DNA of 64,000 nucleotides, taken from assembly GCA_035402985.1 (NCBI GenBank), contig DAONEH010000001.1, positions 3,123 to 67,122 of the forward strand. Reading direction: 5' to 3'. Positions 19,495 through 38,256 of the stretch are shown piece by piece. This stretch comes from a bacterium (GTDB lineage Bacteria > Patescibacteriota > Patescibacteriia > Patescibacteriales > UBA12465). Both the position numbers and the translations under genes were made by a program. Within the stretch, counting starts at the first letter, position 1, and every line of letters begins with the position of its first letter. Under the pieces are notes generated by a model, which was not told where the DNA came from, did no database searches, and was given only the letters and a program-made list of their open reading frames with translations.

Positions 19495-21396
19495 TTATTT
19501 GATATTATTGTCAAGAGGAATAAGAACGGCTTTTATTCTTCGAACCCCAGAACTAGAACTTTCTTCTTTCTGTATCTTAAAATAACCTAAATCACCAATA
19601 TTTTTAACATGAGGACCACCACAAATCTCTTTAGAAAACAAAGTTATCGGATTAGATGAAAAATCACCGATAGAATAAACTTTTACCCGATCACCATATT
19701 TACTCTCAAATACTCCGGTTGCTCCAGAAATTTTAGCTTCATTTAAAGTCATTTCTTCACACTGCACATCATATTTTTTAGAAATAGCTTCATTAACCAA
19801 ATCTTCAACTTGTTTTTTTTCTTCTTCGGTCATTTTATCTGGATAAGAAAAATCAAAACGCAAACGTTCAGCTGTAATATTAGATCCTCTTTGATTAACT
19901 TGAGAACCTAATACTTTTTTTAAAGAAGCTAATAATAAATGACAAGTAGTATGAAGTTTAGTGGTTGCTTCACTTTGATCAGCTAAGCCCCCTTTAAATT
20001 TTCCAACACTAGCTGTTTTTGATAATTCTTGATGTTTACAATATTCTTGTTTATACTCTTCAATAAAATTAGCTGATTTAATAATATTTTTTTCAGATAT
20101 AATTTCTTCCGTCATTTCTAGTGGATAACCATGAGTTTGAAAAAGATTAAAAGCAACAAAGCCATTTATTTCTTTTTTAGATTCGGCTAATGAATTTAAA
20201 ATCTTTTCTCCCCGTTCAATCATTTTACTAAATTTAGTTTCTTCTTCTTCTAAATTTTCTAATATAAAAGAAGTATTACGATCCAACTCTTCATAATCAT
20301 TTTTATAAAAATTAATAATTGTTTCCGCTATTTCTTTCAACCATTTATCATTTTTTATACCTAGTTGACGACCAGAACGTAAAGCTCGACGAAGAAGTCG
20401 TCGAATAATATATCCTTGGTCAGTATTAGACGGACTTAATCTTTTATCGTCCCCCATTAAAAAAACTGAAGACTTAATATGATCAGCTATTATTTCAAAA
20501 TATTTTTTATTATCTTCGTATTTTAAACCAGATAATTTTTCAATTTTTTTAATTAATTCTTTTAAAGAATCAATTTCAAAAATATTATTACAATTATTTA
20601 TAGCCATAGCAATTCTTTCTAATCCTCCACCAAAATCAACATTTTTGTTTTCTAATTCTTCCCAACCTGACTCTGTTTTCTTGTATTGCATAAAAACAGA
20701 ATTACCAATTTCTACAAAACGACCACAATCACAATTAGGATGACAATAAGGACCAAACTTAGGATCATGTTCTTGTCCAGTATCAAAAAAAGTTTCACTA
20801 TCAGGTCCACCTAATTCTCCAACGGCTTCACCTCGTTTCCACCAATTTTTATCTCGGTAAGCAAATATTTTTTGAAGAGAAAAATCTATTTTTTGTCCCG
20901 AACCACTTTCTCCCTTGCCTGTAGTTTCTGGACCTTCTTCGGCTATTACTCCATATTTTTTGTAAATATCTTTTAAAATTAAAACAGCTTCTTCATCTTT
21001 TTTAATTTTTTGACCATCACCTACATAAACTGATTGATAAATCCGATTAATATCTAAACCTAATTCTTCTATTAAAAATTCAAACCACCAATTTAATTGT
21101 TCTTGTTTAAAATAATCACCTAAACTCCAATTACCTAACATTTCAAAAAAAGTATTATGACGACCATCACCGACATCTTCAATATCTTCACTCCGAAAAC
21201 ATTTTTGACTATTAACCAATCGTTGACCCGCTGGATGTTTTTCCCCTAATAAATATGGGATAAGTGGTGACATACCAGCATTAACAAAAAGAATACTGGA
21301 ATCATTTTCTGGAATTAAAGAAGCACTAGAAATAATTTGATGTTTCTTTTTGGCAAAAAAATTTAAATATTTTTGTCTAATATCACTAGTAGTCAT
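19495..21396 (-). CDS. alaS: Alanyl-tRNA synthetase, short form (catalytic plus editing domains, no C-terminal C-Ala/DHHA1 region)
   Basis: The N-terminus (FFAKKKHQIISSASLIP..DSSILFVNAGM) and the editing HxxxH motif (HTTCHLL) are present, with CGGPH near the C-terminus. The length is 633 aa against ~870. Confidence 0.85.
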   Translation of the reverse strand: MTTSDIRQKYLNFFAKKKHQIISSASLIPENDSSILFVNAGMSPLIPYLLGEKHPAGQRLVNSQKCFRSEDIEDVGDGRHNTFFEMLGNWSLGDYFKQEQLNWWFEFLIEELGLDINRIYQSVYVGDGQKIKKDEEAVLILKDIYKKYGVIAEEGPETTGKGESGSGQKIDFSLQKIFAYRDKNWWKRGEAVGELGGPDSETFFDTGQEHDPKFGPYCHPNCDCGRFVEIGNSVFMQYKKTESGWEELENKNVDFGGGLERIAMAINNCNNIFEIDSLKELIKKIEKLSGLKYEDNKKYFEIIADHIKSSVFLMGDDKRLSPSNTDQGYIIRRLLRRALRSGRQLGIKNDKWLKEIAETIINFYKNDYEELDRNTSFILENLEEEETKFSKMIERGEKILNSLAESKKEINGFVAFNLFQTHGYPLEMTEEIISEKNIIKSANFIEEYKQEYCKHQELSKTASVGKFKGGLADQSEATTKLHTTCHLLLASLKKVLGSQVNQRGSNITAERLRFDFSYPDKMTEEEKKQVEDLVNEAISKKYDVQCEEMTLNEAKISGATGVFESKYGDRVKVYSIGDFSSNPITLFSKEICGGPHVKNIGDLGYFKIQKEESSSSGVRRIKAVLIPLDNNIK

Positions 21397-21404
21397 ATAA
21401 AAAA

Positions 21405-22427
21405 TTATAATATATTAACTTCTTCTTCTAATTTAAGACCAAATTTAGTTTTTACTTCTTTCTTTATTATTTTAACTAAATTTAAAACATCTTTTTGTTT
21501 AGCTCCACCATAATTAACAATTATTAAAGCTTGTTTATCATATACCCCAACCGTAGCTAATCGTTCTCCTTTTAAACCACATTGTTCAATCAACCAAGCT
21601 GCTGGAATCTTAGCCTGACCATCTGAAATTATATATTTTATATCAGGAAATTTATTTTTTAAATCATCTAAAGTCTCTAAACTAATTAAAGGATTTTTAA
21701 AAAATGAACCAGCATTAGATAATAATGCGGGATTAGGTAATTTAGCATCTCTAATTTTTATTATAATATCAGCTAATTGTTTTAAACTAGGTTCCGTTAT
21801 TTTTTCTTCATTTAAAGTGTCCGAAATTCCAGGATAACTTAAATTTAATTTTTTATCCCTACTTAATTTAAATTCTACCCATAGAATAAAATACTTTCCT
21901 TTTAATTTTCCTTTAAAAATACTATGACGATAAGAAAATTCACAATCTTTTAAATTAAAATATTTTAATTCTCCTGTTTTTATATTAATAGCAGCTAAAT
22001 TATAGAAACAATCTTTTATTTCTGTGCCATAAGCTCCAATATTTTGTACCGGAGCAGCTCCTACTGTACCTGGGATATAAAAAGTATTTTCTAAACCATA
22101 CAAATTTTCTTCCATAGTAAAATTTACTAATTTTGACCATATTTCTCCACTATAAGCTTTAACAATAACACTTTTATCATTTTCACTTAAAAGTTCTAAA
22201 CCTTTTATTTCATTTTTTATAACTAAACCAGAAAAACCTCGATCAGAAAATAAAGTATTAGAACCTCCTCCTAAAATAAAAACTTTCTTACATTTCTTTT
22301 TGGCCCAACTTAAAGCCATTTTTAATTCTTCTATAGTTTTAACAATAACAAAAAATTTAGCTACTCCCCCTATTTTAAAAGTAGTATAATTAGCTAAATT
22401 AATATTTTTTTTTATTTCTAAATCCAT
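21405..22427 (-). CDS. murB: UDP-N-acetylenolpyruvoylglucosamine reductase
   Basis: The FAD-binding PCMH domain (NYTTFKIGG.AK.FV...LGGGSN) and the MurB C-terminal domain are present. Confidence 0.85.
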   Translation of the reverse strand: MDLEIKKNINLANYTTFKIGGVAKFFVIVKTIEELKMALSWAKKKCKKVFILGGGSNTLFSDRGFSGLVIKNEIKGLELLSENDKSVIVKAYSGEIWSKLVNFTMEENLYGLENTFYIPGTVGAAPVQNIGAYGTEIKDCFYNLAAINIKTGELKYFNLKDCEFSYRHSIFKGKLKGKYFILWVEFKLSRDKKLNLSYPGISDTLNEEKITEPSLKQLADIIIKIRDAKLPNPALLSNAGSFFKNPLISLETLDDLKNKFPDIKYIISDGQAKIPAAWLIEQCGLKGERLATVGVYDKQALIIVNYGGAKQKDVLNLVKIIKKEVKTKFGLKLEEEVNIL

Positions 22428-22430
22428 AAA

Positions 22431-23855
22431 TTAAACTTTTATTTTTAACCAATGATAAGCAATTCGAAAAATATCTCCCGCTCCCAATAATAATACTACA
22501 TCATTTGGTCCAATCTTATCAGGTAAATATTTCTCGGCCATATTTAAATCTTTTAGATACTTAACTACTTGTTTTTTATTTATAGTAGTATTATATTGCC
22601 TAATTTTTTCAATTAAATCAATACTAGAAATATGACCTTGTTTTTCTCGAGCTGAAGAATAAATTTCTATTAAATATAAACTATCACTTAATACAAAACT
22701 TTTAGCAAAATCATTTATTAATGCTTCAGTTCGACTAAAAGTATGAGGATGGAAAACAGTAATAATATTTTTATCGGCATAACGTTGTCTAACAGCTTGG
22801 AGTGAAGCTTTTATTTCGCTAGGATGATGAGCATAATCATCAATGATGACAGCTCCTTTATATTTTCCTAAAACATCAAAACGACGAGTTGCTCCCACAA
22901 AAGTAACTAAATGTTTTTTTATAATTTCTAAACTTAAACCCAATTCTAAAGCTGTAGTAATAACTGCTAAAGCATTAGAAATATTATGTCGTCCTGGTAA
23001 AGAAATTTTAAATCTACCTAAATTTTTATTATTTAAAAACAAAGAAAAACATTGACCATTTTCAGTAATTTCTATATCGCTAGCATAATATATTTTTTTA
23101 GCTTTATTTTCTATTATTTTATTATTATCACGAATATAATAAGCAATAGTTTTGCCAGAACATTCTTTAGAAGCTCTAGTAGCTAATTTATCTTCTAAAT
23201 TAAATACTAGCCAACCAGATTTAGGAATTTTTTTTATAAACTCAGCAAAAACTTTAAAGTATTGTTTTTTATCTTTAAAATAATCAGGATGATCAAAATC
23301 AATATTATTTAAAACTACACCTCGTGGATTAAAAAAACGTAATTTATTTTGGTATTCATCTGACTCCGCCACAAAATATTTAGATTTACCTATTAAGGCA
23401 CTACCCTTAAATTGTTTAACATAAGATCCTGTTAAAACATTAGGTTTTAATCCACTTTCTTTTAAAACATAGCCTAACCATGAAGTTACGGTTGTTTTAC
23501 CATGACTACCACAAACAGAAATACCATAATAATTATTAAATAATAATCCTAAGGCTTCAGCATAAGTAAGAAAAGTAATTCCTTGATCTTTAAAATATTT
23601 TAATTCCACATTATCATTAAAATTAAAGGCTGATGAATAAATTACTAAATCAATTTTTTTAGGAAAATTCTTTAAAGAAAATCCTTGTTTAACTTTAATT
23701 TTAGCTTGAGCCAAAGTTTTATCAGTTGGAAATCTATCACTCACATCAGAACCACTAACTACAAAACCAGTACCTTTAAGAAATTGGGCCAACATGGCCA
23801 TGCCTACCCCCTTAATACCAACCATATAGATATTTTTATAATCCGTTATTTTCAT
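22431..23855 (-). CDS. murC: UDP-N-acetylmuramate--L-alanine ligase
   Basis: It has the Mur ligase N-terminus (YMVGIKGVGMAMLAQFL) and P-loop (GSHGKTTVTSW). Confidence 0.85.
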   Translation of the reverse strand: MKITDYKNIYMVGIKGVGMAMLAQFLKGTGFVVSGSDVSDRFPTDKTLAQAKIKVKQGFSLKNFPKKIDLVIYSSAFNFNDNVELKYFKDQGITFLTYAEALGLLFNNYYGISVCGSHGKTTVTSWLGYVLKESGLKPNVLTGSYVKQFKGSALIGKSKYFVAESDEYQNKLRFFNPRGVVLNNIDFDHPDYFKDKKQYFKVFAEFIKKIPKSGWLVFNLEDKLATRASKECSGKTIAYYIRDNNKIIENKAKKIYYASDIEITENGQCFSLFLNNKNLGRFKISLPGRHNISNALAVITTALELGLSLEIIKKHLVTFVGATRRFDVLGKYKGAVIIDDYAHHPSEIKASLQAVRQRYADKNIITVFHPHTFSRTEALINDFAKSFVLSDSLYLIEIYSSAREKQGHISSIDLIEKIRQYNTTINKKQVVKYLKDLNMAEKYLPDKIGPNDVVLLLGAGDIFRIAYHWLKIKV

Positions 23856-23861
23856 ATAAAA

Positions 23862-24950
23862 CTATTTTTTATTATTTATAATCTCTTTTATTAAATTAGT
23901 CATTTCATGATTACCATTTTTTATAACCTGAAAAATATTTTGACTTAATTTATTCTTTAATTCATCGTTATTTAATATTAATTTAATTTCTTTAATAAAA
24001 TCATCACTATTTAATTTTTTTTGATCTAAAATAATAGCGGCTTCTTTCTTTTCAAATTCTTGAGCATTATATTCTTGATGTGAGTCAGGCATTGGAATTA
24101 AAATAGTTGGTTTTTTAAAAAAAGATAATTCGGTTAAAGTAGCCAAACCACAACGCGATACCACTAGATCAGCTAAGGACATTAAAGCTAATAAATCAGG
24201 ATGGTTAATAAATTCTAATTTAAGATAATTTTCATAATCAATATCTTCGTTTCCTTTTATATCTCTCTCGGTAGAACCACTAATATGAATTATTTTAGAT
24301 ACTAACAGCAATTCTTCTAACGATTCCGCTGTTAATTTATTTAAAAAAGAAGATCCGGTTCCCCCACCTATAATTATAATCAAAGGTAATCTTAAATTAT
24401 TTAATTGATACTTATCCAAAATTTCATTTTTATTAAATTTAAAATTATTTAAATCTGGTCCTAAATTACCAATCCATCGGGCTTTAGAACCATAATATTT
24501 TTTAGCTTCAGGAAAAGTTACGGTAATAATTTTAGCTGTTTTAGACATTAATTTATTAGCTAAACCAGGTAAAACATCTTGTTGATGAACAATACTAGGA
24601 ATACCTAAAACCCAAGCTGCCCATGATAATGGTACGGCTACAAAACCACCTACACTAATTATTATTTTTGGTTTTATCTTTAATAATAAAAATAAAGATT
24701 GCCAAAAAGCTAAAAATATCAAAAAAATATCTACTAAATTTTTTAAAGAAAAATAACGACGCCATTTACCACTTAAAATAGCACTATAAGCTAAGCCTTC
24801 TTTTTTAATAATGCCTTTTTCTAAACCAGAATAGGTACCAATAAATAAAAAATCAAACTCATTATGTAATTCATAATAAATTTGTAATAAGGGAGTAACT
24901 GAACCACCGGTTCCCCCACCACTTAAAATTATTGTATCTTTTTTATTCAT
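23862..24950 (-). CDS. murG: Undecaprenyl-PP-MurNAc-pentapeptide UDP-GlcNAc transferase
   Basis: The N-terminal GGGTGGSVTPLL matches GGTGGH.FP.L. It has the GT28 fold and the dcw context. Confidence 0.8.
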   Translation of the reverse strand: MNKKDTIILSGGGTGGSVTPLLQIYYELHNEFDFLFIGTYSGLEKGIIKKEGLAYSAILSGKWRRYFSLKNLVDIFLIFLAFWQSLFLLLKIKPKIIISVGGFVAVPLSWAAWVLGIPSIVHQQDVLPGLANKLMSKTAKIITVTFPEAKKYYGSKARWIGNLGPDLNNFKFNKNEILDKYQLNNLRLPLIIIIGGGTGSSFLNKLTAESLEELLLVSKIIHISGSTERDIKGNEDIDYENYLKLEFINHPDLLALMSLADLVVSRCGLATLTELSFFKKPTILIPMPDSHQEYNAQEFEKKEAAIILDQKKLNSDDFIKEIKLILNNDELKNKLSQNIFQVIKNGNHEMTNLIKEIINNKK

Positions 24951-24955
24951 ATAAA

Positions 24956-26206
24956 TTAATTTCTTAATCTAAGATTATGTTTTTCTGATAATTCTTGACT
25001 ACTAATATTTAATAAAATACCACAAGCCATTAATAAAAATACTAAAGATGTTCCACCAGCACTTACAAAAGGAAGAGGAACACCCGTCATTGGAATTAAA
25101 TTAATCATTCCTCCAATATTTAAAAAAGCTTGAAAGAAAATCCAAACGGAAATACCAATAGCTAAAGATCGGCCATAAATATCAGGTGCTCGTTTAGCAA
25201 TTAAAGCTCCTTTTATAAATATAAAAAGATAAATTAATAATATCACGACTGAACCAACAAAACCAATTTCTTCAGCAATTACTGGAAAAATAGAATCAGC
25301 CCAAACTTCGGGTAAATAATTAAATTTTTGTAAACTATTTCCCAAACCTCTTCCCCATAAACCACCCGAACCAATAGCAATTAAAGATTGACTAACTTGA
25401 TAACAATTATCTTTGTCAAAATCAGGATCTTGTAAACATTTTATTCTAGTTAATTGATAATCTTTAATTAAACCATCATTAGAACTATTAGAAGTATCAA
25501 TTTGATTAGCTCGAGAAAATAACATTACCAAACCAATAACGGCTAGTAGAAACATCACCATTAATTGTTTCATATTACCTCCAGCGACAAAATAAATAGA
25601 TAGAGCAATTATAACTATCAACATGAAAGTTCCTAAATCTGGTTCTAGTAATAATAATATACCAATAAAAGAAATAACCACTAAAAATGGTAATAATCCT
25701 GTAGAAAATATTTTTAAATCATCTTGTCGCGTTTCAACCCAAGCAGCTAAATAAAAAATTAAAAAAAGTTTTACCGCTTCAGCTACTTGAAAAGATTGAC
25801 CAAAAACAATAATCCAACTATAAGAAGTGGCATATTCTGATCTAATTCCAGGAACAAAAACTAAAACTAATAACAAAATTGATAATAATAAAAAGAAAAA
25901 AGAAAATTTTTTAAAAATATGATAATTAACACGAGTTAAAATAAAAAATAATACTAAACCAATAACTAAAGCTATTGCTTGTTTTTTAACATAAAAATAA
26001 GTATCACCTTTTGCATAACCAGAAACTAAAGAAGCACTAAATAAAATAACCAAACCAAAAACCGCTAAAATAATAATAACGCTAAGCAATGATTTATCTA
26101 TCGGTTTTTTAATAAATGATCTACTATTAGTTAAATTATTACTAGATGATTTATTAATACCAGAATTAAACCAATTTGATTTTGTATTATTTTTATTTTT
26201 AAACAT
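24956..26206 (-). CDS. ftsW: SEDS-family peptidoglycan glycosyltransferase (FtsW/RodA)
   Basis: It is a polytopic membrane protein with SEDS motifs (PDLGT, FIGEE-like AEEIGF..., SAGGTS). It sits between mraY and murG. Confidence 0.8.
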   Translation of the reverse strand: MFKNKNNTKSNWFNSGINKSSSNNLTNSRSFIKKPIDKSLLSVIIILAVFGLVILFSASLVSGYAKGDTYFYVKKQAIALVIGLVLFFILTRVNYHIFKKFSFFFLLLSILLLVLVFVPGIRSEYATSYSWIIVFGQSFQVAEAVKLFLIFYLAAWVETRQDDLKIFSTGLLPFLVVISFIGILLLLEPDLGTFMLIVIIALSIYFVAGGNMKQLMVMFLLAVIGLVMLFSRANQIDTSNSSNDGLIKDYQLTRIKCLQDPDFDKDNCYQVSQSLIAIGSGGLWGRGLGNSLQKFNYLPEVWADSIFPVIAEEIGFVGSVVILLIYLFIFIKGALIAKRAPDIYGRSLAIGISVWIFFQAFLNIGGMINLIPMTGVPLPFVSAGGTSLVFLLMACGILLNISSQELSEKHNLRLRN

Positions 26207-26211
26207 TAAAT

Positions 26212-27261
26212 TTAATTAAAAGTTTTATCAGTAAAAAATATCATTAAACCAATGACCGCCATAATTCCAGCAATTAACCAGAAACGCATTACTACTTTAC
26301 TCTCCGGCCAACCCTTAGCTTGATAATGGTGGTGAATCGGAGCTGATAAAAAAACTTTCTTATGTCTAATTTTACGTGATAAAATTTGGATAATAACCGA
26401 AACTGATTCAACTACAAAAATAAATCCAATAAAAGGTAAAATTAAAACATTATTAGTAAGCATAGCAATAATACCTAAAGTTATACCTAAACTCATTGAA
26501 CCAGTATCACCCATATAAAATCGAGCGGGTGGAATATTAAACCATAAAAAAGCTAATAATGCTCCAATAATTACGGCACAAAAAACAGCTAAATCATAAC
26601 GACCCATAACAAAAGAAATAACCGCATAAGAAGAAAAGGATATTAATAGAGTTCCTCCAGCTAAACCATCTAAACCATCGGTTTCGTTAACCGAGAAAGA
26701 AGTAGCTACGAGTACTAGAATAAATACTGGTATATACCACCAAGATATTTCGGTATAACCTAAAAAAGGAATATGAATAGTAGTCCAATCAAGTTTAAAA
26801 TAAAACCATAAGGCACCAATTATTGCAATAAAAGTATAAATAAGTAAACGATGTTTCATTCTAAGACCACCGCCACCTAATACTCCCTTTTTTCTAACAT
26901 CCAACCAATCATCAAATAAACCAATCAAAGCTGAAGCTATTAAAGCACCTAAGGGCAATAATGTTTCTTTTTGTGATAAAAAATTAAAAGTAGAAGAAAA
27001 ACTTCCTGGAATAATTAAATTTAAAATATAAAAAAATAAAATAAGAATAAGGACTGTTCCCCAAATTAAAACCCCACCCATAGTTGGAGTTCCTTCTTTA
27101 TGAGCATGTAATTCACTAAAAATAGGAGTACTACCAGTATTTCTTATTTGTTTGCCTAATTTATGTTTATACAAAAAATTAGTTAAAAATGGTGTACAAA
27201 ACATTGCAAAAACAAAAGCTAAAGTAGCAAAAAATAAAACTCTAATTATTTGAAACTCCAT
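26212..27261 (-). CDS. mraY: Phospho-N-acetylmuramoyl-pentapeptide transferase
   Basis: GTPTMGG, DDW.D, TDGLDGLAGG and MGDTGS are MraY/PNPT signature motifs. Confidence 0.9.
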   Translation of the reverse strand: MEFQIIRVLFFATLAFVFAMFCTPFLTNFLYKHKLGKQIRNTGSTPIFSELHAHKEGTPTMGGVLIWGTVLILILFFYILNLIIPGSFSSTFNFLSQKETLLPLGALIASALIGLFDDWLDVRKKGVLGGGGLRMKHRLLIYTFIAIIGALWFYFKLDWTTIHIPFLGYTEISWWYIPVFILVLVATSFSVNETDGLDGLAGGTLLISFSSYAVISFVMGRYDLAVFCAVIIGALLAFLWFNIPPARFYMGDTGSMSLGITLGIIAMLTNNVLILPFIGFIFVVESVSVIIQILSRKIRHKKVFLSAPIHHHYQAKGWPESKVVMRFWLIAGIMAVIGLMIFFTDKTFN

Positions 27262-27783: not shown

Positions 27784-28464
27784 ATGAAAATATTTTGTAT
27801 AATTCCAGCCTGGAATGAAAGTCTAAATATAGTCACTACTATTCAAAAAGTATTAAATTATGTTGATTTTTTAGTAATAATTAATGATTGTTCCACTGAT
27901 AATACTTTAAAAAAGGCCCAAGAATTACAAAATCAATATCCAGATAAAATTAAAGTTTTAAGCCACCCAATTAATTTAGGTCAAGGAGCTTCTTTGCAAA
28001 CTGGTAATGATTATGCTCTATTAAATGGAGCTGAGATTATTGTTCATTTTGATGGAGACGGCCAATTTTTAGCTGAAGAAATTATAGATATTATAAACCC
28101 AATAATAAAAGATAATTATGATATTGTGTTTGGTTCTAGGTTTTTAGAAAAAAAATCAAGTATTCCTAAGTTTAAAAAAAATATTATTATGCCTTTAGCT
28201 AAAATATTTAATTTTATTTTTTTTGGTATAAAAACCAGTGATCCTCAGATAGGATTTAGAGCTATGACAGCCAGTACTGCTCAAAAAATAAGAATAGAAA
28301 ATAATAGAATGGCTCATGCCACTGAAATATTAGCTAAAGCTTATAAATATAAATTAAAAATAAAAGAAGTACCCGTTACAGTTATCTATAATAGATATGG
28401 TCAAAAATTTTCTGGTGGTTTTAAAATAATAAAAGATTTATTTTTTAAAAAAATAATTAGTTAA
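27784..28464 (+). CDS. GT2 polyprenyl-phosphate sugar transferase (DPM1/GtrB-like)
   Basis: IIPAWNESLNI (IVPAYNEE.NI), DCSTDNT and the HFDGDGQ DxD-type motif are present, as in Dpm1/GtrB family GT2 enzymes. Confidence 0.8.
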   Translation: MKIFCIIPAWNESLNIVTTIQKVLNYVDFLVIINDCSTDNTLKKAQELQNQYPDKIKVLSHPINLGQGASLQTGNDYALLNGAEIIVHFDGDGQFLAEEIIDIINPIIKDNYDIVFGSRFLEKKSSIPKFKKNIIMPLAKIFNFIFFGIKTSDPQIGFRAMTASTAQKIRIENNRMAHATEILAKAYKYKLKIKEVPVTVIYNRYGQKFSGGFKIIKDLFFKKIIS

Positions 28465-28999: not shown

Positions 29000-29650
29000 T
29001 TATTTCTCCAAAATCAAGTCTCCGGTAGATAACGCTGCTTCATGGGAAGCGCAGCGTGGCCATGGCTGTCCTAAAACATTCTTTGAATCAAAAATAAATA
29101 TAAAACAATCTCCGGGGGGAACCTTACCATAATTGTTTGTTAAAACAAGATCGAAATATTTCCACACGATGCGCGAATAAATAGACCAAGGCTTCATTGA
29201 TGTTTCAACTCTATGGTGTATTACATAAAGATTAGCTTTTTCCCCCTTACATAAATCACCAGATCGAAATTCACGCACCCCCGTTTCGGTTGGCACGCGA
29301 AGAATGTCTTTATATTCATTTGAAAATTCAAAAGATCCGCCAGCTGCGTCAAAAAATGAGCTTAACAAAATATCGTCAACATTTAAGGGTATACCGTCAG
29401 CAATAATGCTCCCTGATTTACTATGCGCAAATAAACCATTTCTTTTTATTTTCAATAATTCGGGGTCAGCTTTTAAAAATATTTCTTCACCGCAAGCAAA
29501 TATTCTATAATCAGTTCTTGATAAAATTTTTCTTTCTGTTAAAGTTTGATTTTTATTTTTTAACACCCAAAAAACAAATATTAATATAAATAATATTATC
29601 GAAATAACTATAATTCTTAATTTATGAATATTTTTTGTTGTCAGCTTCAT
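29000..29650 (-). CDS. Hypothetical membrane-anchored protein (216 aa), part of the higher-GC island
   Basis: It has an N-terminal signal anchor (LRIIVISIILFILIFVFWVL) and a ~180-aa ectodomain with four Cys. Local GC is 45-55% against ~28% genome-wide. It lies 2 nt downstream of the 322-aa gene. Confidence 0.5.
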   Translation of the reverse strand: MKLTTKNIHKLRIIVISIILFILIFVFWVLKNKNQTLTERKILSRTDYRIFACGEEIFLKADPELLKIKRNGLFAHSKSGSIIADGIPLNVDDILLSSFFDAAGGSFEFSNEYKDILRVPTETGVREFRSGDLCKGEKANLYVIHHRVETSMKPWSIYSRIVWKYFDLVLTNNYGKVPPGDCFIFIFDSKNVLGQPWPRCASHEAALSTGDLILEK

Positions 29651-29652
29651 AA

Positions 29653-30621
29653 TTAATCTATTATTTCAAGCACACCAATGCTTAAGAAATCTCCTTTGCG
29701 TGCTTTGATTAATTTATCATATATCTTATCCCATTTTTCAATTTCAGTTATTGTAATACATCCCAAAGAGCGGCTGCCAGTGTGCAGATATCTTTCGCCA
29801 TCATGGCCGACCCTAAACCAACTTTTGGCTCTAAACGATCTATTCTCATAATGCCTTCCTCCAAGGTGAGGATAATCAGGAATCTCAATGTCATATAGTC
29901 CTTTCTTCCAAGATGTTTCTGTATAATCCGTGGCTTTATATTTTATATTACCTATAATCAGTTTTTTTTGAAAAATGGAATACTGGAGATGAATTAAAGG
30001 TTTATGTTTTACATCGGCCAAAAGCCGTGAATTACTATTGTTTGCATTATCTAGACTAACAGAAGCTTTTTGCCCCCTATAGGGACCTTCTAAAATCGTA
30101 AAATATTCGCGCCCACTCTCAACATACCCTAATTGTACTTTTAAAAAGGCAGGAAGAGAAACAGTCTCGCCACTTGTAATTTTAACTTTGAGCCAACCAT
30201 TATTAACATCGGGGATATACCTTATTGTTTCTGTGACCAAGGCCTCAATCGTAACTTCAAAAATAGCAGTAGACTTGCCCCAGGTCTTGCCAAAACGATT
30301 TTCGCGAAGCTCAATATTATAGGTGAAATTCTGCGGCCTAACGTCATCCGTATCGACTTTAATTGTCTTTTCTGTCTTCCCAATATCATTAAATAATATA
30401 TCTTTTTCTGCAATAGTGATTTTTACTTTGGTAGAAAATGTTTTTTGGTCAGAGGGAAAATCACCTATCGCTTGACTGAATTCGACGGTTTTTCTAGCCT
30501 GTATCCTTTTATCGGCGCGCAAGATCTTGTCCAATAATTCTATATCAATACGGATGTCGTTACCAATCGATTTACCTGTATATTTTATTTTTATCAGTTT
30601 AAATTGAATTTTTTTAAGCAT
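29653..30621 (-). CDS. Hypothetical protein (322 aa) with C-terminal His/Cys motif reminiscent of the L,D-transpeptidase (YkuD)-like fold
   Basis: The N-terminal ~200 aa is beta-rich. The C-terminus is HLGGRHYENRSFRAKSWFRVGHDGERYLHTGSRSLGCITITEIEKWDKIYDKLIKARKGDFLSIGVLEI. LHTG...SLGCIT resembles H-G-[ST]...S-H-G-C-[IV]-R of Ldt catalytic domains, with shorter spacing. It has no signal peptide and higher GC. Confidence 0.45.
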   Translation of the reverse strand: MLKKIQFKLIKIKYTGKSIGNDIRIDIELLDKILRADKRIQARKTVEFSQAIGDFPSDQKTFSTKVKITIAEKDILFNDIGKTEKTIKVDTDDVRPQNFTYNIELRENRFGKTWGKSTAIFEVTIEALVTETIRYIPDVNNGWLKVKITSGETVSLPAFLKVQLGYVESGREYFTILEGPYRGQKASVSLDNANNSNSRLLADVKHKPLIHLQYSIFQKKLIIGNIKYKATDYTETSWKKGLYDIEIPDYPHLGGRHYENRSFRAKSWFRVGHDGERYLHTGSRSLGCITITEIEKWDKIYDKLIKARKGDFLSIGVLEIID

Positions 30622-30644: not shown

Positions 30645-31115
30645 TTATACATTTTGTCCATTTAATATCGACTGTAGTTCCTTGACTTTTATCAATAGAG
30701 TTTTAGCATCTGTATGGGCTTGACCTAGTTCTGCCTCCGAAATTCCGATAAAATCACCATATTCGATCCTATTTCTTTTCTTTCTCATTTGTTGGAATCT
30801 TTGAAATTCATTACTGAGTTCGCCGTTAAGCAAAATGGCGGCAGCATTGATTACAATATAATGATGTCCTTCTCCACTTGTTTTCGCTCTATATCCGTTA
30901 ATTAACAATATAGCTTCACAGCATAATCTTATAGAATCATAGATGTTATTATACACAATATCCTCATCCCCAGTACCTATCCCGGACAAATTTTTATTTG
31001 CAAAATTATATAACCTGTCAGCCTTCTCAATTTTTATTTCAACCCCTTTTAAGCTGAACGAAAAAGGCTCAATAGAATTATTATTTAATAATGTTTGAAT
31101 CTCTTGTAAAATCAT
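30645..31115 (-). CDS. HEPN-domain protein (putative toxin of a HEPN/MNT pair)
   Basis: It is ~156 aa and all-helical, partnered with and overlapping by 35 nt an upstream minimal nucleotidyltransferase. The R-x4-6-H region reads RKKRNRIEYGD, with Y where the canonical H would sit. Confidence 0.65.
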   Translation of the reverse strand: MILQEIQTLLNNNSIEPFSFSLKGVEIKIEKADRLYNFANKNLSGIGTGDEDIVYNNIYDSIRLCCEAILLINGYRAKTSGEGHHYIVINAAAILLNGELSNEFQRFQQMRKKRNRIEYGDFIGISEAELGQAHTDAKTLLIKVKELQSILNGQNV

Positions 31116-31668
31116 ACGGGCTTCCTTTTAATTTAATTATTGGAGATAAAAATATATTAGATATAAAATTATTTTTTTCTTTGATTTTTTTAACAATTTC
31201 TTGACTACTGTAAATATGATAATTTATCTCTCTAGCAATTTTCCCTTCTAACGAACTTATCATGGTAATAAGGGCGTCTTGGTTTATATTTCCAATCAAC
31301 ATTAAATCAATATCGCTATTATTATTTTCTGTTCCCTTGGCTATTGATCCAAAAATAAAAGCACATTCAACATTATCAAGTTTATCAACTAACTTTTTCA
31401 ATTCATTTTCTAAACCAGATGTTTTTGAAATAATGCTTTTTATTTCTTCATAAAGCGGGTGTTCTTTATTTAATCTAAAAAAACGCATATTCCCGCGACG
31501 CTCATCTAATAATATCTTATCTTCCACTAAATTATCTAAATATTTTTGATAATGGCTTGGCTCTTTATTTAGATTTTTAGCGATTTCTCTAAAATAGTAT
31601 TCTTTGTCTGGATTTTTAAAAAATAACTCCATGATTTCTCCGCCGCCCTTTTTTAAAAAATTTAGCAT
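31081..31668 (-). CDS. Nucleotidyltransferase (MNT) with N-terminal winged HTH (putative antitoxin)
   Basis: FIFGSIAKGTENNNSDIDLMLIG is the minimal NTase motif GS-x9-13-D[IL]D. An N-terminal wHTH (YFREIAKNLNKEPSHYQKYLDNLVEDKIL) is also present. Confidence 0.8.
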   Translation of the reverse strand: MLNFLKKGGGEIMELFFKNPDKEYYFREIAKNLNKEPSHYQKYLDNLVEDKILLDERRGNMRFFRLNKEHPLYEEIKSIISKTSGLENELKKLVDKLDNVECAFIFGSIAKGTENNNSDIDLMLIGNINQDALITMISSLEGKIAREINYHIYSSQEIVKKIKEKNNFISNIFLSPIIKLKGSPYDFTRDSNIIK

Positions 31669-31866: not shown

Positions 31867-33876
31867 CTACTTAATAAATCTAAAAATATAAAGTTTACCC
31901 TCATCAATACTATAATAATCATCAGCTACTGCTTTCATTTCTTCAATTATTTTATCAAAAGCCCACCAATAATCATTAACGACTACTAAACATTCATCCG
32001 CTCCAGTTTTATCTAATAAGTCCTTAGCTAATTCTTTATCAGGATTAGCTATTATTTTTAAATAATAATCATATAATAATCCACCAGTTTGAACCGAATA
32101 ATAAAACCAAGAATCATAATAACGTTTAAAACCATATTCTTTGATAGCGGCTGCCCCCACCTGCTGATTAGCTAAAACTATATAATTATCATTAATTTTA
32201 TGCTCTTCAATATGTTTAACAGTTGAAAAATCGGATTGAGACACAGAAAAAGATCGAGAATTAAAATAATTATCTTTACGTGGATAATTAAGATATAAAG
32301 AAACAAGACATAGGACACCAAGAAATATTAATAATATAATTTTAAATATTCTAGCTTCCTTCTCTATTTTTTTTAATAAACAAACAAACATATCATAAAA
32401 AACTGGAACTAAAAATAAGAAAGAAATTATTAAAATCCGCTTAGCATAAGAATCTTTATCCACGGCACTTAAAAAAGGAAAATCAATAAAAGAACTCAAT
32501 ATATAAGAAAATATTAAAGCTAAAGAATTAAAAAAGAAAATTTTTAATTCCGGACGACCTTTTTTAAAAACAAAAAAGGTTATTATGATAAACAATAATA
32601 ATAGCCACCAATTATTATTAGAACCAAAAAAATAAATAAAATTAAGAAATATATTTTCTTGTCCTAAAAAATTAAAAGACCATTTTGAAAAATCAAAACT
32701 TCCAATTGAAAAACGTCCACCAATTATAATTAAAAGAATTGGTAAAATAATAATTTGTCCTAAATAACTTAAAATTTTACCTAATTTTAAAAATTTAATT
32801 GGTATTCTACTTGTTTCTAATTTATTTAAAAATAATATAAAAACAAAAATAATGGCTGGAATACCAGCTAAGGGATGAATAAAAAATATACTTAAAGCTA
32901 TGGAGAATAAAAAAATAAAATTATACCGATTAGCAATAAAGTATTTATTAAATGAAAACAATATTAAAATAATCAGGAATAAAAAAGATAAATTTTGTGG
33001 AACGGTATAAGTAAAAATAGAAAATGGTAATAATAAAAAGATTATTAAAGGCCAAATTATTTTATTATACCCTCTGTTTCTAAAATTAAACCAAAAAGTT
33101 AGAGGAATTAAAATAGCTGATAATACTGGTACTAATAATTTATTTATTAAACCAATTGATAAAGGTAAAATTTTAAAAAGCGATAATTCTAAAACATATT
33201 GACCTATATAATAAATTGTTTTAGGCTCAATTAAACCAGTTGACAAAATATCAATCATGGCTCGCTCATGAAGAAGTTGATCATAACCAAAAGCTATTTT
33301 ATAAATAAAAACAGAAATAGAAAAAAATAAAAAATACCATAAAATTATAAAAAGATAAGACCAAGAGTTTTTTTGATAAAAACTTAAAAATATTAATCCA
33401 ATTAAAAGACCAATTAATACCCAAAAATACCAAGGAAGAAAAAACCAGGGTGAAGCTATAGCTCCTAAACTTCCAGCTTTAAACAATACAAAAAACAAAT
33501 AAGCAAAAATAATAAAGATACCAGCTGAAATAATTATTTTTAATCCTTTATTTTTTTTCTTTAAAGTATCTAACTCTATTTTATCAATTTCTTGCTGATT
33601 AGGACGAGAAATGATAAAATATATAAACAGACCAGTAAAAAATAAGGCTAAAATTAAAGAAATTAAAGCTGTTAAATTATTAAAACGATAAAAATAATAA
33701 ATAATTGAAGCGTTATTTATAAACAACGATAAAAATAATAATCCAATTATTAACCAATTTCTTTTGCTATAATGTAATATTTTATTAATAGTCATACTTA
33801 TATAATATACCATAATATATGAAAATTGCCCAAGTAGTTTGTGTTTACCCACCCTATGCCGGTGGAATTGGAACAT
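31867..33876 (-). CDS. Large polytopic membrane protein (>=12 TM) with C-terminal soluble domain; probable GT-C-type glycosyltransferase (ArnT/PMT-like)
   Basis: The architecture is ~450 aa of TM helices followed by a ~200-aa C-terminal globular domain. It sits in a GT-rich, polyprenyl-P-sugar context. The likely true start is downstream (MTINKIL..., ~33795), because the annotated 5' end overlaps the divergent GT1 start. Confidence 0.45.
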   Translation of the reverse strand: MFQFHRHRVGKHKLLGQFSYIMVYYISMTINKILHYSKRNWLIIGLLFLSLFINNASIIYYFYRFNNLTALISLILALFFTGLFIYFIISRPNQQEIDKIELDTLKKKNKGLKIIISAGIFIIFAYLFFVLFKAGSLGAIASPWFFLPWYFWVLIGLLIGLIFLSFYQKNSWSYLFIILWYFLFFSISVFIYKIAFGYDQLLHERAMIDILSTGLIEPKTIYYIGQYVLELSLFKILPLSIGLINKLLVPVLSAILIPLTFWFNFRNRGYNKIIWPLIIFLLLPFSIFTYTVPQNLSFLFLIILILFSFNKYFIANRYNFIFLFSIALSIFFIHPLAGIPAIIFVFILFLNKLETSRIPIKFLKLGKILSYLGQIIILPILLIIIGGRFSIGSFDFSKWSFNFLGQENIFLNFIYFFGSNNNWWLLLLFIIITFFVFKKGRPELKIFFFNSLALIFSYILSSFIDFPFLSAVDKDSYAKRILIISFLFLVPVFYDMFVCLLKKIEKEARIFKIILLIFLGVLCLVSLYLNYPRKDNYFNSRSFSVSQSDFSTVKHIEEHKINDNYIVLANQQVGAAAIKEYGFKRYYDSWFYYSVQTGGLLYDYYLKIIANPDKELAKDLLDKTGADECLVVVNDYWWAFDKIIEEMKAVADDYYSIDEGKLYIFRFIK

Positions 33877-34922
33877 CAGCCCAAAAATTACAAAAAATAT
33901 TATCTGACCAACACGAAGTTTTTGTTTTTACCCCAATTAATAAAAATAAAAATAATAATAATTTGGAAAATAATATCATTCGATTAAAACCAAGCTTAAA
34001 ATTAGGCCATGGAGCCATCCTTTGTTCCCTACTTAAAAAACTAAAAAACTTTGATTTAATATATTTTCATTATCCTTTTTTTGGCACCGGAATAATAATA
34101 TGGTTATTTAAAATTTTTAATCCTCAAAAAAAACTAATTATCCAATACCACATGGATGTTAGACAAAAAAATATTATTTATAAAATATTGAGTTGGCCTG
34201 AAGAAATTATTAAAAAATCATTATTTAAAAAAGCTGATTTAATAATAGTAGCTTCTTTAGATTATATTAAACACAGTAAAATAAAAAATATTTATCAAAA
34301 ATATCAATCTAAATTTAAAGAAATTCCTTTTTCCGTTGATACTAATAAATTTAAACCAAATACTAATCAAATAATAAAAGATAATATTATATTATTTGTA
34401 GGAGGATTAGACAAAGCTCATTATTTTAAAGGAGTTGATATTTTAATTCAGGCGGTTAATTTAATTAAAGATCAAGATTATATATTAAAAATAGCTGGTA
34501 CTGGTCAATTAGCTAAGGATTATAAAAAATTAACTCAGGAATTAAAAATTGATAATAAAGTAATATTTTTAGGAAAACTTAATGAAAATGAATTAATAGC
34601 AAATTATCAAAATGCCAAAGTTTTAGTTTTGCCATCTATTAATAATAATGAAGCTTTTGGTATTGTTTTGATAGAAGCGATGGCTTGTGGTACTCCCGTT
34701 ATTGCTTCTAATTTACCTGGGGTTCGTTTAGTGTTTGAAGATAAAATATCAGGTTTCCAAACAGAAGTAAAAAATATTATTGATTTAAAAAATAAACTAG
34801 AAATTATTTTAGCTGATGATATTTCTCTTAACATGGGCCAAAAAGCTCAGCAATTGGTTAAAGAAAAATATTCTGATATAGTAGTAAGTTCTAAAATACT
34901 AAATTTAATAAATTCTTTATGA
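33819..34922 (+). CDS. Glycosyltransferase family 1 (GT4-type)
   Basis: EAFGIVLIEAMACGTPVIASN is present. The TGA stop overlaps the next ATG (ATGA). Confidence 0.85.
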   Translation: MKIAQVVCVYPPYAGGIGTSAQKLQKILSDQHEVFVFTPINKNKNNNNLENNIIRLKPSLKLGHGAILCSLLKKLKNFDLIYFHYPFFGTGIIIWLFKIFNPQKKLIIQYHMDVRQKNIIYKILSWPEEIIKKSLFKKADLIIVASLDYIKHSKIKNIYQKYQSKFKEIPFSVDTNKFKPNTNQIIKDNIILFVGGLDKAHYFKGVDILIQAVNLIKDQDYILKIAGTGQLAKDYKKLTQELKIDNKVIFLGKLNENELIANYQNAKVLVLPSINNNEAFGIVLIEAMACGTPVIASNLPGVRLVFEDKISGFQTEVKNIIDLKNKLEIILADDISLNMGQKAQQLVKEKYSDIVVSSKILNLINSL

Positions 34923-37335: not shown

Positions 37336-38256
37336 TTATTTATAATTTGTAATATATTCTTTTAAAGCCTCTTTCCAGGATCTAAGTGGCGGTAATTTGG
37401 TATTAGCTAAAACTGAATATTTTGGTCGTTTAGCTGGTCGAGGAAAATTTTCTGATAATACCGGCTTTATCTTTATACTAATTTTTTTTAATTTAAACAA
37501 CTCCGAAGCAGCATCATACCAAATAGCTGGTTCACTATTTCTAACATGATAAATACCAAATTCTAAATTATTTTCTAAAATTTCTCTAATTTGTCGAGCT
37601 AAATCAGGTGTATAAGTAAAACAACTTAATTCCTCATTAACCACACTTATTTCTTTTTTCCCAGAAGCCATTTTTAATATTTGATCAAAAAAATTTTCCT
37701 TAGACATTGGCGAGGCTCCTTTAGGTCCAAAAGGTTTAGAAGTTCTAATTATATAATATTTTAATTTTTTATCAACCAATTTTAATACTTCATCTTCTCC
37801 TAACATTTTAGTTTGACCATATTTATTAACCGGACATCTATGAGCCTCTTCGGTAAAACCACCTCTTTCTTTTATTTTTAAAAATTCCTCTTGGCTATCA
37901 TCATTTTTTTGACAAATATCTCCACCAAAAACATAATTACTCGACATCTGAATAAAAATAGATTCAGTAGCTAATGCTGTTTGAGCTAAATATTTAATAG
38001 CTTTAACATTAATTTTATAAGCCATTTCAAATTCTTCTGTTAATTCCTCACATTTATCAACCGAATTATAACCAATGGCATTAATAATAATATCTGGTTT
38101 AATTTTTTTTATCTTAGAAATTATTAAATTAGGTTCTAATAAATTAGATTCCCTGTAATCATAAGCCAAAACTTGATAATTATCTGAATTAGAAAATTCT
38201 TTAACTAATTGGCTCCCTAAATTACCGGTCGAACCTAAAATTAATACTTTTTTCAT
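37336..38256 (-). CDS. NAD(P)-dependent sugar nucleotide reductase/epimerase, RmlD (dTDP-4-dehydrorhamnose reductase)-like
   Basis: It has the Rossmann GSTGNLGSQL motif, the YGQTK catalytic YxxxK motif, and a size and layout like RfbD. Confidence 0.6.
   Translation of the reverse strand: MKKVLILGSTGNLGSQLVKEFSNSDNYQVLAYDYRESNLLEPNLIISKIKKIKPDIIINAIGYNSVDKCEELTEEFEMAYKINVKAIKYLAQTALATESIFIQMSSNYVFGGDICQKNDDSQEEFLKIKERGGFTEEAHRCPVNKYGQTKMLGEDEVLKLVDKKLKYYIIRTSKPFGPKGASPMSKENFFDQILKMASGKKEISVVNEELSCFTYTPDLARQIREILENNLEFGIYHVRNSEPAIWYDAASELFKLKKISIKIKPVLSENFPRPAKRPKYSVLANTKLPPLRSWKEALKEYITNYK

Follow-up and report, generated by a model that had tools for sequence, protein, structure and literature searches.

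A candidate Tlde1-type wall peptidase and its anchored partner form a two-gene cassette in Patescibacteria

The window analyzed here is a stretch of 64,000 nucleotides from a genome of the Patescibacteriota (contig DAONEH010000001.1 of assembly GCA_035402985.1) with a G + C content of 26.6%. Its minus strand carries a gene, here called X, for which the initial annotation had described a 322-aa protein with a His-then-Cys motif like that of L,D-transpeptidases (Ldt), and directly downstream a partner gene, which begins 2 nt past the stop codon of X (Table 1). X was confirmed as an ATG-initiated open reading frame (ORF), and the motif RYLHTGSRSLGCITI (residues 277-291) was found in its C-terminal part with H280 (codon at 29782-29784), S285, G287 and C288 (codon at 29758-29760), followed by FLSIGVLEI at residues 312-320, as the initial annotation had reported. 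The His-Cys spacing is 8 (H280-x7-C288, S-L-G-C-I-T) and C288 is the sole cysteine among the 322 residues. The highest 19-residue Kyte-Doolittle mean amounts to 0.92 for the whole protein and 0.22 within the first 40 residues. Because these maxima are low, X is considered to have neither a signal peptide nor a transmembrane (TM) segment, in agreement with the N-terminus free of hydrophobic segments that had been noted before.

Table 1. Positions of X, its domains, its partner gene and the two genes upstream in the window. HEPN and MNT are family names; wHTH, winged helix-turn-helix.
Feature	Position	Strand	Description	Basis
Gene X	29653-30621	minus	322-aa three-domain protein, ATG start; stop codon 29653-29655	ORF list, homologous clusters, AlphaFold2 model
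C2-like N-domain of X, residues 1-131	30229-30621	minus	eight-stranded beta-sandwich, no signal peptide	Foldseek vs PDB
SH3-like barrel of X, residues 133-200	30022-30225	minus	five short strands, first half of conserved core module	DSSP
Predicted Tlde1-like Cys/His peptidase domain of X, residues 205-322	29656-30009	minus	YkuD fold	Foldseek, hhalign, weak Tlde1_dom matches
Predicted catalytic motif of X, R-Y-L-H280-T-G-S-R-S285-L-G-C288-I-T-I	29749-29793	minus	invariant in family; aligned to Tlde1 H-x-G...[ST]-x-G-C	read from sequence
Partner gene	29000-29650	minus	216 aa; TM helix at residues ~13-31 plus soluble domain; candidate immunity protein	
HEPN protein	30645-31115	minus	156 aa, 23 nt upstream of X	PADLOC PDC-M05B, E 1.2e-12
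wHTH-nucleotidyltransferase (MNT)	31081-31668	minus	195 aa, overlaps HEPN gene	Pfam Polbeta/NTP_transf_2; PADLOC PDC-M05A, E 3.8e-48

In total, homologues of X were found in 394 clusters at 90% identity. Among the 120 of these that were listed, identities range from 51 to 90% and most proteins span the full length (319-325 aa); none has a Pfam domain, and 'hypothetical protein' is the only name given to them. A search of 1.84 billion representatives with the X profile revealed 696 clusters at 50% identity with E<=1e-3, of which 168 reached E<=1e-30. The closest relatives are found in metagenome-assembled genomes (MAGs) of Falkowbacteria- and Parcubacteria-type Patescibacteria, which belong to the Candidate Phyla Radiation (CPR). 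In 36 full-length members, the residues H252, H273, Y278, H280, G282, S285, G287, C288, T290, W297 and R308 are invariant, and eight of them (H252, H280, G282, G287, C288, T290, W297 and R308) are still invariant in 26 distant members consisting of the core only. No match for X was obtained in NCBIfam, PADLOC or PHROGs, and searches of the PDB sequences with the protein and with its full-length, C-terminal and core profiles returned noise only. Judged by these comparisons, X represents a real and sizeable family that is absent from Pfam, NCBIfam, PADLOC and PHROGs, and with its homologous clusters and invariant residues the His/Cys motif is not a chance occurrence.

The family is spread thinly. 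Among 185,579 GTDB species genomes, only 67 X loci were detected, some genomes having two cassettes. Among the 2.9 million viral contigs of IMG/VR there is one relative, and a fold search with X in the viral database BFVD gave three weak, unnamed matches only. The identity of X as a phage endolysin was ruled out by the missing PHROG match and this single IMG/VR relative.

A model of full-length X was calculated with AlphaFold2 from the family alignment. It is all-beta with one helix-bearing C-terminal domain and reached a predicted local distance difference test score (pLDDT) of 88.1 and a predicted template modelling score (pTM) of 0.71. In the Foldseek comparison with PDB this model returned only C2 domains (9bky, 6nyt, 7a1r and others), and the C-terminal domain (residues 196-322) was therefore modelled alone (pLDDT 83.6). 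The top 25 matches of this second model are all of the L,D-transpeptidase fold, comprising transpeptidases and carboxypeptidases, and the lower ranks are noise. The probabilities of these same-fold matches lie between 0.72 and 1.0 (1.00 for the first 11) and the query TM (template modelling) scores between 0.47 and 0.58. YkuD of B. subtilis (4A1I, 1Y7M) ranks first, and further matches include LdtMt1/2/3/5, DpaA, M. abscessus Ldt2, V. cholerae LdtA, Pgp2 and E. faecium Ldt. In the full-length model, H280 is located at the end of strand 277-281 and C288 just before strand 289-291. The resemblance to Ldt and YkuD that had been proposed from the motif is supported by these matches, since the fold is that of an L,D-transpeptidase and not an unrelated one.

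The relationship to Tlde1 (DUF2778) was followed at the level of sequence profiles. X itself matches Pfam Tlde1_dom (PF10908) with 12.9 bits (E 0.15), residues 279-309 being placed on profile positions 79-114. Tlde1_dom is the only recurring and most frequent Pfam match in the family; 24 of the 36 full-length members match it, as do 13 of the 26 that consist of the core only, where the best E is 1.3e-6. PF03734, the YkuD family, gave no match for X and was matched weakly by 3/36 and 1/26 members (E 0.055 and 0.012). A tblastn search of 72,556 plasmids with the member P0191 found two family members; the only other matches were a Ralstonia Rhs protein annotated as DUF2778 and a Burkholderia 'tlde1 domain-containing protein'. 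With hhalign, the core-module profile of the wider family (A3) was aligned to the DUF2778 domain at the C-terminus of the Ralstonia Rhs protein with 94.4% probability (E 9e-8, 74 columns) and to the Burkholderia protein with 83.6% (E 8e-6, 55 columns). These alignments pair NPIPxGTxDIE, the His of H-x-G, the Cys of [ST]-x-G-C and the following W, so that H280 and C288 fall on the Tlde1 His and Cys. The suggestion that X is a relaxed Ldt relative of the Tlde1 type is thereby strengthened.

The initial annotation had also remarked that the His-Cys distance of 8 is shorter than usual. This holds, yet a His-Cys distance shorter than in YkuD is published for DUF2778, where the exchanges H121A and C131A abolish the toxicity of Tlde1 (10.1101/2020.02.18.954545); the short spacing of X is thus typical of the family and raises no objection. 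The crystal structure of Tlde1 has an active site of Y119, H121, H129 and C131 (PMC9638812). Taken together, structure models and profile alignments firmly support the prediction that the C-terminal domain of X is a Cys/His enzyme of the YkuD fold with homology to L,D-peptidases of the Tlde1 type.

The two domains preceding the predicted peptidase domain are assigned from models and strand patterns. Residues 1-131 match C2 domains with E 5e-5 to 1e-3, target TM scores of 0.44-0.53 and root mean square deviations of 6-8 A, without sequence support. C2 domains are eukaryotic Ca2+- and lipid-binding beta-sandwiches, and the likeness of this region to them is one of fold only: there is neither sequence similarity nor a Pfam C2 match, and beta-sandwich matches can be generic. 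The domain is modular, as it is missing from core-only relatives and is joined to an SLT lytic transglycosylase in the relative P0252. In the region of residues 133-200, DSSP assigns strands at 143-148, 153-157, 161-168, 171-176 and 185-189, and some members of the family show weak Pfam matches to SH3_3, SH3_9 or SH3b_T; we infer from this an SH3-like fold.

The architectures of the relatives were counted in the 150 best of the 696 representative clusters. The full three-domain architecture occurs in 55 of them, and 29 consist of the core (residues 133-320) alone, one of which (P0202) runs on into a C-terminal Amidase_3 domain. Three clusters combine the core with an N-terminal signal peptide. 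In 13 the core stands behind long N-terminal regions, five of these with eCIS_core (DUF4157), the marker of extracellular contractile injection system (eCIS) toxins, and one with Peptidase_C70. Four clusters are full-length X with an N-terminal extension, which is a HepT RNase domain in three. P0205 is encoded in a genuine contractile injection locus, flanked by an eCIS_core paralogue on one side and by genes for an AAA ATPase, CIS_tube, Phage_base_V and gp25 on the other. A cell-wall theme is seen in the Amidase_3 fusion of P0202, in the N-domain joined to SLT in P0252 and in the three signal-peptide-bearing core-only members.

Further relatives were examined in their gene context. A complete-looking eCIS locus (L079:124-15993) encodes an AAA ATPase, an LGT-domain protein, CIS_tube, Phage_base_V, gp25 and two eCIS_core proteins, one of which includes the core module of X; a Y1 transposase adjoins the locus. 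P0252 (L081:2070-3857), located on a single 4.5-kb contig, has 595 aa with an N-domain of the C2-like X type (E 1e-34 against the X profile), SH3_3 and the SLT lytic transglycosylase, as well as a TM segment and an FG-GAP-like tail, and no signal peptide; from its sequence, the C2-like N-domain appears to be a module common to wall-active enzymes. In L078, the gene of a 568-aa MACPF/perforin protein (692-2398; 24.1 bits at a threshold of 21.5) lies 8 nt downstream of that of the core-only protein P0207 (99-683), possibly a pairing of a pore-former with a wall enzyme. Pfam searches on the neighbours of the non-CPR core-only loci (Sphingosinicella, Streptomyces) were uninformative.

The 67 GTDB loci and six further ones were examined for the gene after X: in nearly all (about 60 loci) this is a partner gene at a distance of -26 to +9 nt, and in loci at first missed by ORF parsing a partner-like sequence was also found immediately downstream of X. 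The partner proteins have 150-250 aa, and all 54 that were scored possess an N-terminal hydrophobic segment. They fall into three families with 33, 15 (the window type) and 3 loci, respectively, which are mutually unrelated (hhalign 1-2%), as seen for immunity proteins. Window-type partners have four invariant cysteines, compared with only the catalytic Cys in X. No match for the window partner was found in Pfam, NCBIfam, PADLOC, PHROG or PDB, including searches with the partner profile. The divergence of X and of its partner is correlated (r about 0.6). By inspection, the N-terminus is lipobox-like in the partners of the non-CPR relatives L047 (a deltaproteobacterium) and L061 (a Verrucomicrobiota MAG), and that of the non-CPR relative L073 is signal-peptide-like and looks cleavable. 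Because of these N-termini, the soluble domain of the partner is argued to be extracytoplasmic. It is well supported by context that the downstream partner is a functionally coupled extracytoplasmic protein, and it probably protects the producer.

Two simpler views of the partner were rejected. A single conserved partner was ruled out, as the window-type partner is not homologous to the partners in L001 and L003 and the families are unrelated by hhalign, and a partner type that tracks one particular domain of X was ruled out as there is no domain-specific signal. The cassette is repeated in tandem in L034 and L052, where the second X begins 0.4-1.1 kb downstream of the partner gene. The partner in L052 (512 aa) is made up of three tandem repeats of the partner domain of the commonest family (cluster 0). 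In this family (L024, L047, L003) the motifs C-x4-C-G...C-x-G-G-W and ...I-x-I-A-D-K-x-x-K-I-V-G-I-Y-P are reminiscent by eye of thioredoxin-like or redoxin proteins, a likeness with no Pfam match behind it. The third family (L030, L045, L062; about 245 aa) has a weak PdaC-domain match (E 0.0033, under the threshold); PdaC also occurs in a lysozyme-binding anti-sigma factor.

Upstream of X, the MNT-HEPN pair (PADLOC candidate system PDC-M05 A/B) is directly adjacent in 9 loci, most loci being without HEPN, and the four-gene block MNT-HEPN-X-partner recurs in relatives with differing flanks. The pair is probably a separate toxin-antitoxin or defence module carried along with the cassette. Elsewhere a Y1 transposase gene or an AbiEii- or RelE-like one lies upstream of X, these labels being a reading of the sequences. 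The HepT-X fusions, in which the Rx4H motif of HepT is intact, belong to three separate clusters at 50% identity (P0176, P0196, P0210), and L073 has no adjacent MntA-like gene. Between the HEPN protein of the window and the HepT domain of the P0176 fusion, no similarity was detectable by BLAST. The recurrent link of HEPN to X may reflect either hitch-hiking in defence islands or functional coupling. Because of the 67 loci in 185,579 genomes, the HEPN/MNT, AbiEii-like, RelE-like and Y1-transposase neighbours and the tandem or double copies, the cassette is regarded as behaving like an accessory gene.

Within 2-8 kb of X, a peptidoglycan-synthesis block on the minus strand (21405-27261) encodes MurB, a Mur ligase, MurG, FtsW and MraY, from which it follows that the organism makes a wall. 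A conserved linkage of X to these genes was ruled out, since mur, ftsW and mraY are not conserved neighbours of X. An alanyl-tRNA synthetase gene (19495-21396) precedes the block. Beyond the MNT gene, a 669-aa polytopic membrane protein without a Pfam match at E<=1e-5 is encoded on the minus strand (31867-33876), and its 5′ end shares 58 nt with the start of a divergent 367-aa ORF (33819-34922, plus strand), which by eye resembles a glycosyltransferase. A glycosyltransferase family 2 (GT2) gene (27784-28464) and an RmlD-like gene (37336-38256) are located nearby; together, the glycosyltransferase-like, GT2 and RmlD-like genes around the membrane protein suggest a surface-glycan cluster.

From the domains, the cassette and the relatives we favour, with moderate confidence, the reading that X is a peptidoglycan-directed L,D-peptidase effector of the Tlde1/Tox-LD-peptidase kind and that the downstream gene encodes its extracytoplasmic immunity or inhibitor protein. 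Of its parts, that X targets peptidoglycan and belongs to the world of deliverable toxins is well supported by context. The initial annotation had left a host-directed and a self-remodelling wall enzyme side by side; the effector reading is preferred because of the three-domain build, the conserved cassette with an anchored partner and the relatives that are eCIS or polymorphic-toxin cargo, and self-remodelling is less favoured.

The reaction of X, L,D-carboxypeptidation or exchange through a thioacyl on C288, is proposed by analogy with Tlde1a and L,D-transpeptidases. H280 would activate the thiol of C288, which would attack the carbonyl of the L-centre residue 3 (meso-diaminopimelic acid, mDAP, or Lys) of the tetrapeptide stem, releasing D-Ala4 and forming a thioacyl-enzyme. 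Water would resolve this intermediate in an L,D-carboxypeptidase reaction, an amine or D-amino acid in an exchange or transpeptidation, and either outcome would corrupt the cross-linking of the target wall. L,D-carboxypeptidase is a documented activity of Tlde1, Csd6 and Pgp2 (PMC9638812). We infer roles for the remaining parts as well: the SH3-like domain (133-200) may bind the wall, and the C2-like N-domain (1-131), which is specific to the CPR-type architecture, may bind the membrane or serve delivery. As X has no signal peptide, it would leave the CPR cell by a non-Sec route, as effectors of the Tlde1 kind delivered through type VI secretion systems (T6SS) or by eCIS do, and the membrane-anchored partner would neutralize it outside the producer's own membrane.

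Several observations weigh against the effector reading. Of the two structural comparisons put forward in the initial annotation, the one with Ldt held (1Y7M was matched), whereas Tlde1a (7UMA) was not among the Foldseek matches of the C-terminal model. With 12.9 bits, X is far under the Tlde1_dom gathering threshold of 30.1 bits, and individually scanned members of the wider family (13.6-20.1 bits) also stay below it. The profile built from CPR members only (A1) is aligned to DUF2778 with only 25% probability, so the link to Tlde1 rests on the wider family. The catalytic domain, 51-80% identical to that of the window protein, is rather well conserved for a toxin. X of L011 is 72% identical to the window X over the three domains (70-76% in each of them) and has a partner of another family, which is unexpected for a tightly co-evolving inhibitor pair. 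Furthermore, the flanking charges do not settle the topology of the CPR partners, and neither the window nor the inspected CPR loci showed a secretion or injection apparatus beside X.

Three other explanations are possible, which account for fewer of the observations. It is unlikely that X is a self-directed L,D-carboxypeptidase or transpeptidase for the cell's own peptidoglycan, with the anchored partner as a membrane receptor or regulator. The organism makes peptidoglycan and its mur genes are 2-8 kb off, canonical YkuD enzymes are housekeeping (PMC9638812), and both the good conservation of the catalytic domain and the similar, moderate rates of divergence of X and partner would agree with such a role. 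However, canonical Ldts are exported and X has no signal peptide or TM segment, its patchy spread (67 of 185,579 species genomes) and the three unrelated partner families argue otherwise, the adjacency to mur genes is not conserved, the neighbours being toxin-antitoxin, defence and transposase genes, and relatives are eCIS or polymorphic-toxin cargo.

The absence of an export signal is shared by two readings in which X acts from the cytoplasm. A lysis or suicide cassette, in which the small membrane protein frees or activates a cytoplasmic wall hydrolase in the manner of endolysin and holin, for abortive infection with MNT-HEPN or for particle release, is quite improbable. A signal-less wall enzyme beside a small TM protein, its position directly downstream of PDC-M05-type MNT-HEPN in 9 loci, the HepT-X fusions and the suggestion by Geller et al. 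(PMC8213781) of a possible part of eCIS toxins in the lysis of the producer speak for it; yet the partners, unlike holins, have a soluble domain of 130-220 aa and in some cases lipobox- or signal-peptide-like N-termini, neither X nor partner matches a PHROG, one relative occurs in 2.9 million viral contigs, and HEPN is missing from most loci. Least probable of all, we consider, is a role of X in the cytoplasm of an auxotrophic CPR cell, where it would act like LdcA as an L,D-carboxypeptidase and shorten the tetrapeptides of scavenged or recycled muropeptides to tripeptides. The L,D-carboxypeptidase activity documented for Tlde1, Csd6 and Pgp2 (PMC9638812) and the nearby mur genes in the window would fit, but this reading does not explain why an anchored or secreted partner is obligatory, why X has C2-like and SH3-like domains, why fusions to eCIS_core and Amidase_3 occur and why the distribution is patchy.

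To our knowledge, the ways in which episymbiotic CPR bacteria act on hosts or competitors are largely uncharted, and we know of no contact-dependent toxin system established for them. Under the effector reading, a cassette of two genes that is widespread (394 clusters at 90% identity, about 60 species-level genomes) would combine a Tlde1-type wall peptidase with a candidate immunity protein. Through the family, CPR proteins are connected with eCIS and polymorphic-toxin cargo of other phyla, and one may ask by what path a wall enzyme without a signal exits a CPR cell. As a tentative and, taken as a whole, doubtful extension, Patescibacteria may carry lineage-specific, signal-less wall effectors that are marked by the C2-like N-domain for delivery or targeting of the host envelope through an unrecognized export route and are used on the wall of hosts or competitors in the episymbiotic contact zone, and immunity proteins from three unrelated families, anchored at the surface, would protect the producer.

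Among known systems, the best structural matches of X are the YkuD L,D-transpeptidases (PF03734; 1Y7M, LdtMt1/2, E. coli LdtB), Csd6 and Pgp2. As in X, canonical YkuD enzymes have the catalytic Cys after [ST]-x-G and the His on the strand before it. The spacing of these residues is 14-17 in canonical members (16 in E. coli LdtB, with SHGCVR), in contrast to 8 in X, which has S-L-G-C-I-T instead of S-H-G-C-h-R. An hhalign comparison of the X family with E. coli LdtB was not significant (5%, only the SHGC region aligned). Canonical Ldts are exported, whereas X has no Sec or lipoprotein signal and no LysM or PG_binding domain.

With Tlde1/DUF2778, X has in common the YkuD-derived fold, the motif Y-x-H...[ST]-x-G-C, the lack of a signal peptide and an adjacent gene for a protein that, in the case of X, is probably extracytoplasmic. 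The His-Cys spacing is 10 in Tlde1a, 8 and 7 in the two plasmid-borne domains from Ralstonia and Burkholderia, and 8 in X. Tlde1a contains two conserved disulfides, which have no equivalent in X with its single Cys. The immunity protein of Tlde1a reportedly contains DUF2195; the partner of X has no Pfam match, so that no relation is apparent. Tlde1 is a T6SS effector, whereas X is without a T6SS and possesses an additional SH3-like domain and, in CPR, the C2-like domain; among the called neighbours in the window and in loci L001-L005, no T6SS, Rhs or PAAR genes were found.

The third comparison is with Tox-LD-peptidase, which was predicted with H, S and C residues in polymorphic toxins with linked immunity genes (PMC3482391, Zhang et al. 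2012), and with the L,D-transpeptidase toxin EAT6, which kills E. coli and belongs to the eCIS toxins marked by DUF4157/PVC-metallopeptidase (PMC8213781, Geller et al. 2021). The conserved H, S and C correspond to H280, S285 and C288, and an immunity-like gene is linked in both cases. The C-terminal toxin position behind a trafficking or processing domain (Rhs, PVC-metallopeptidase/DUF4157) is found in the relatives P0205, P0206, P0230, P0233 and P0238; X itself has the C2-like N-domain instead of DUF4157, Rhs or another known trafficking domain. The published phyletic range of these toxins does not include Patescibacteria. The X cassette is probably an uncatalogued branch of the Tlde1/Tox-LD-peptidase effectors, which is set apart by the lack of a known delivery system, its distribution mainly in CPR and its build from C2-like and SH3-like domains.

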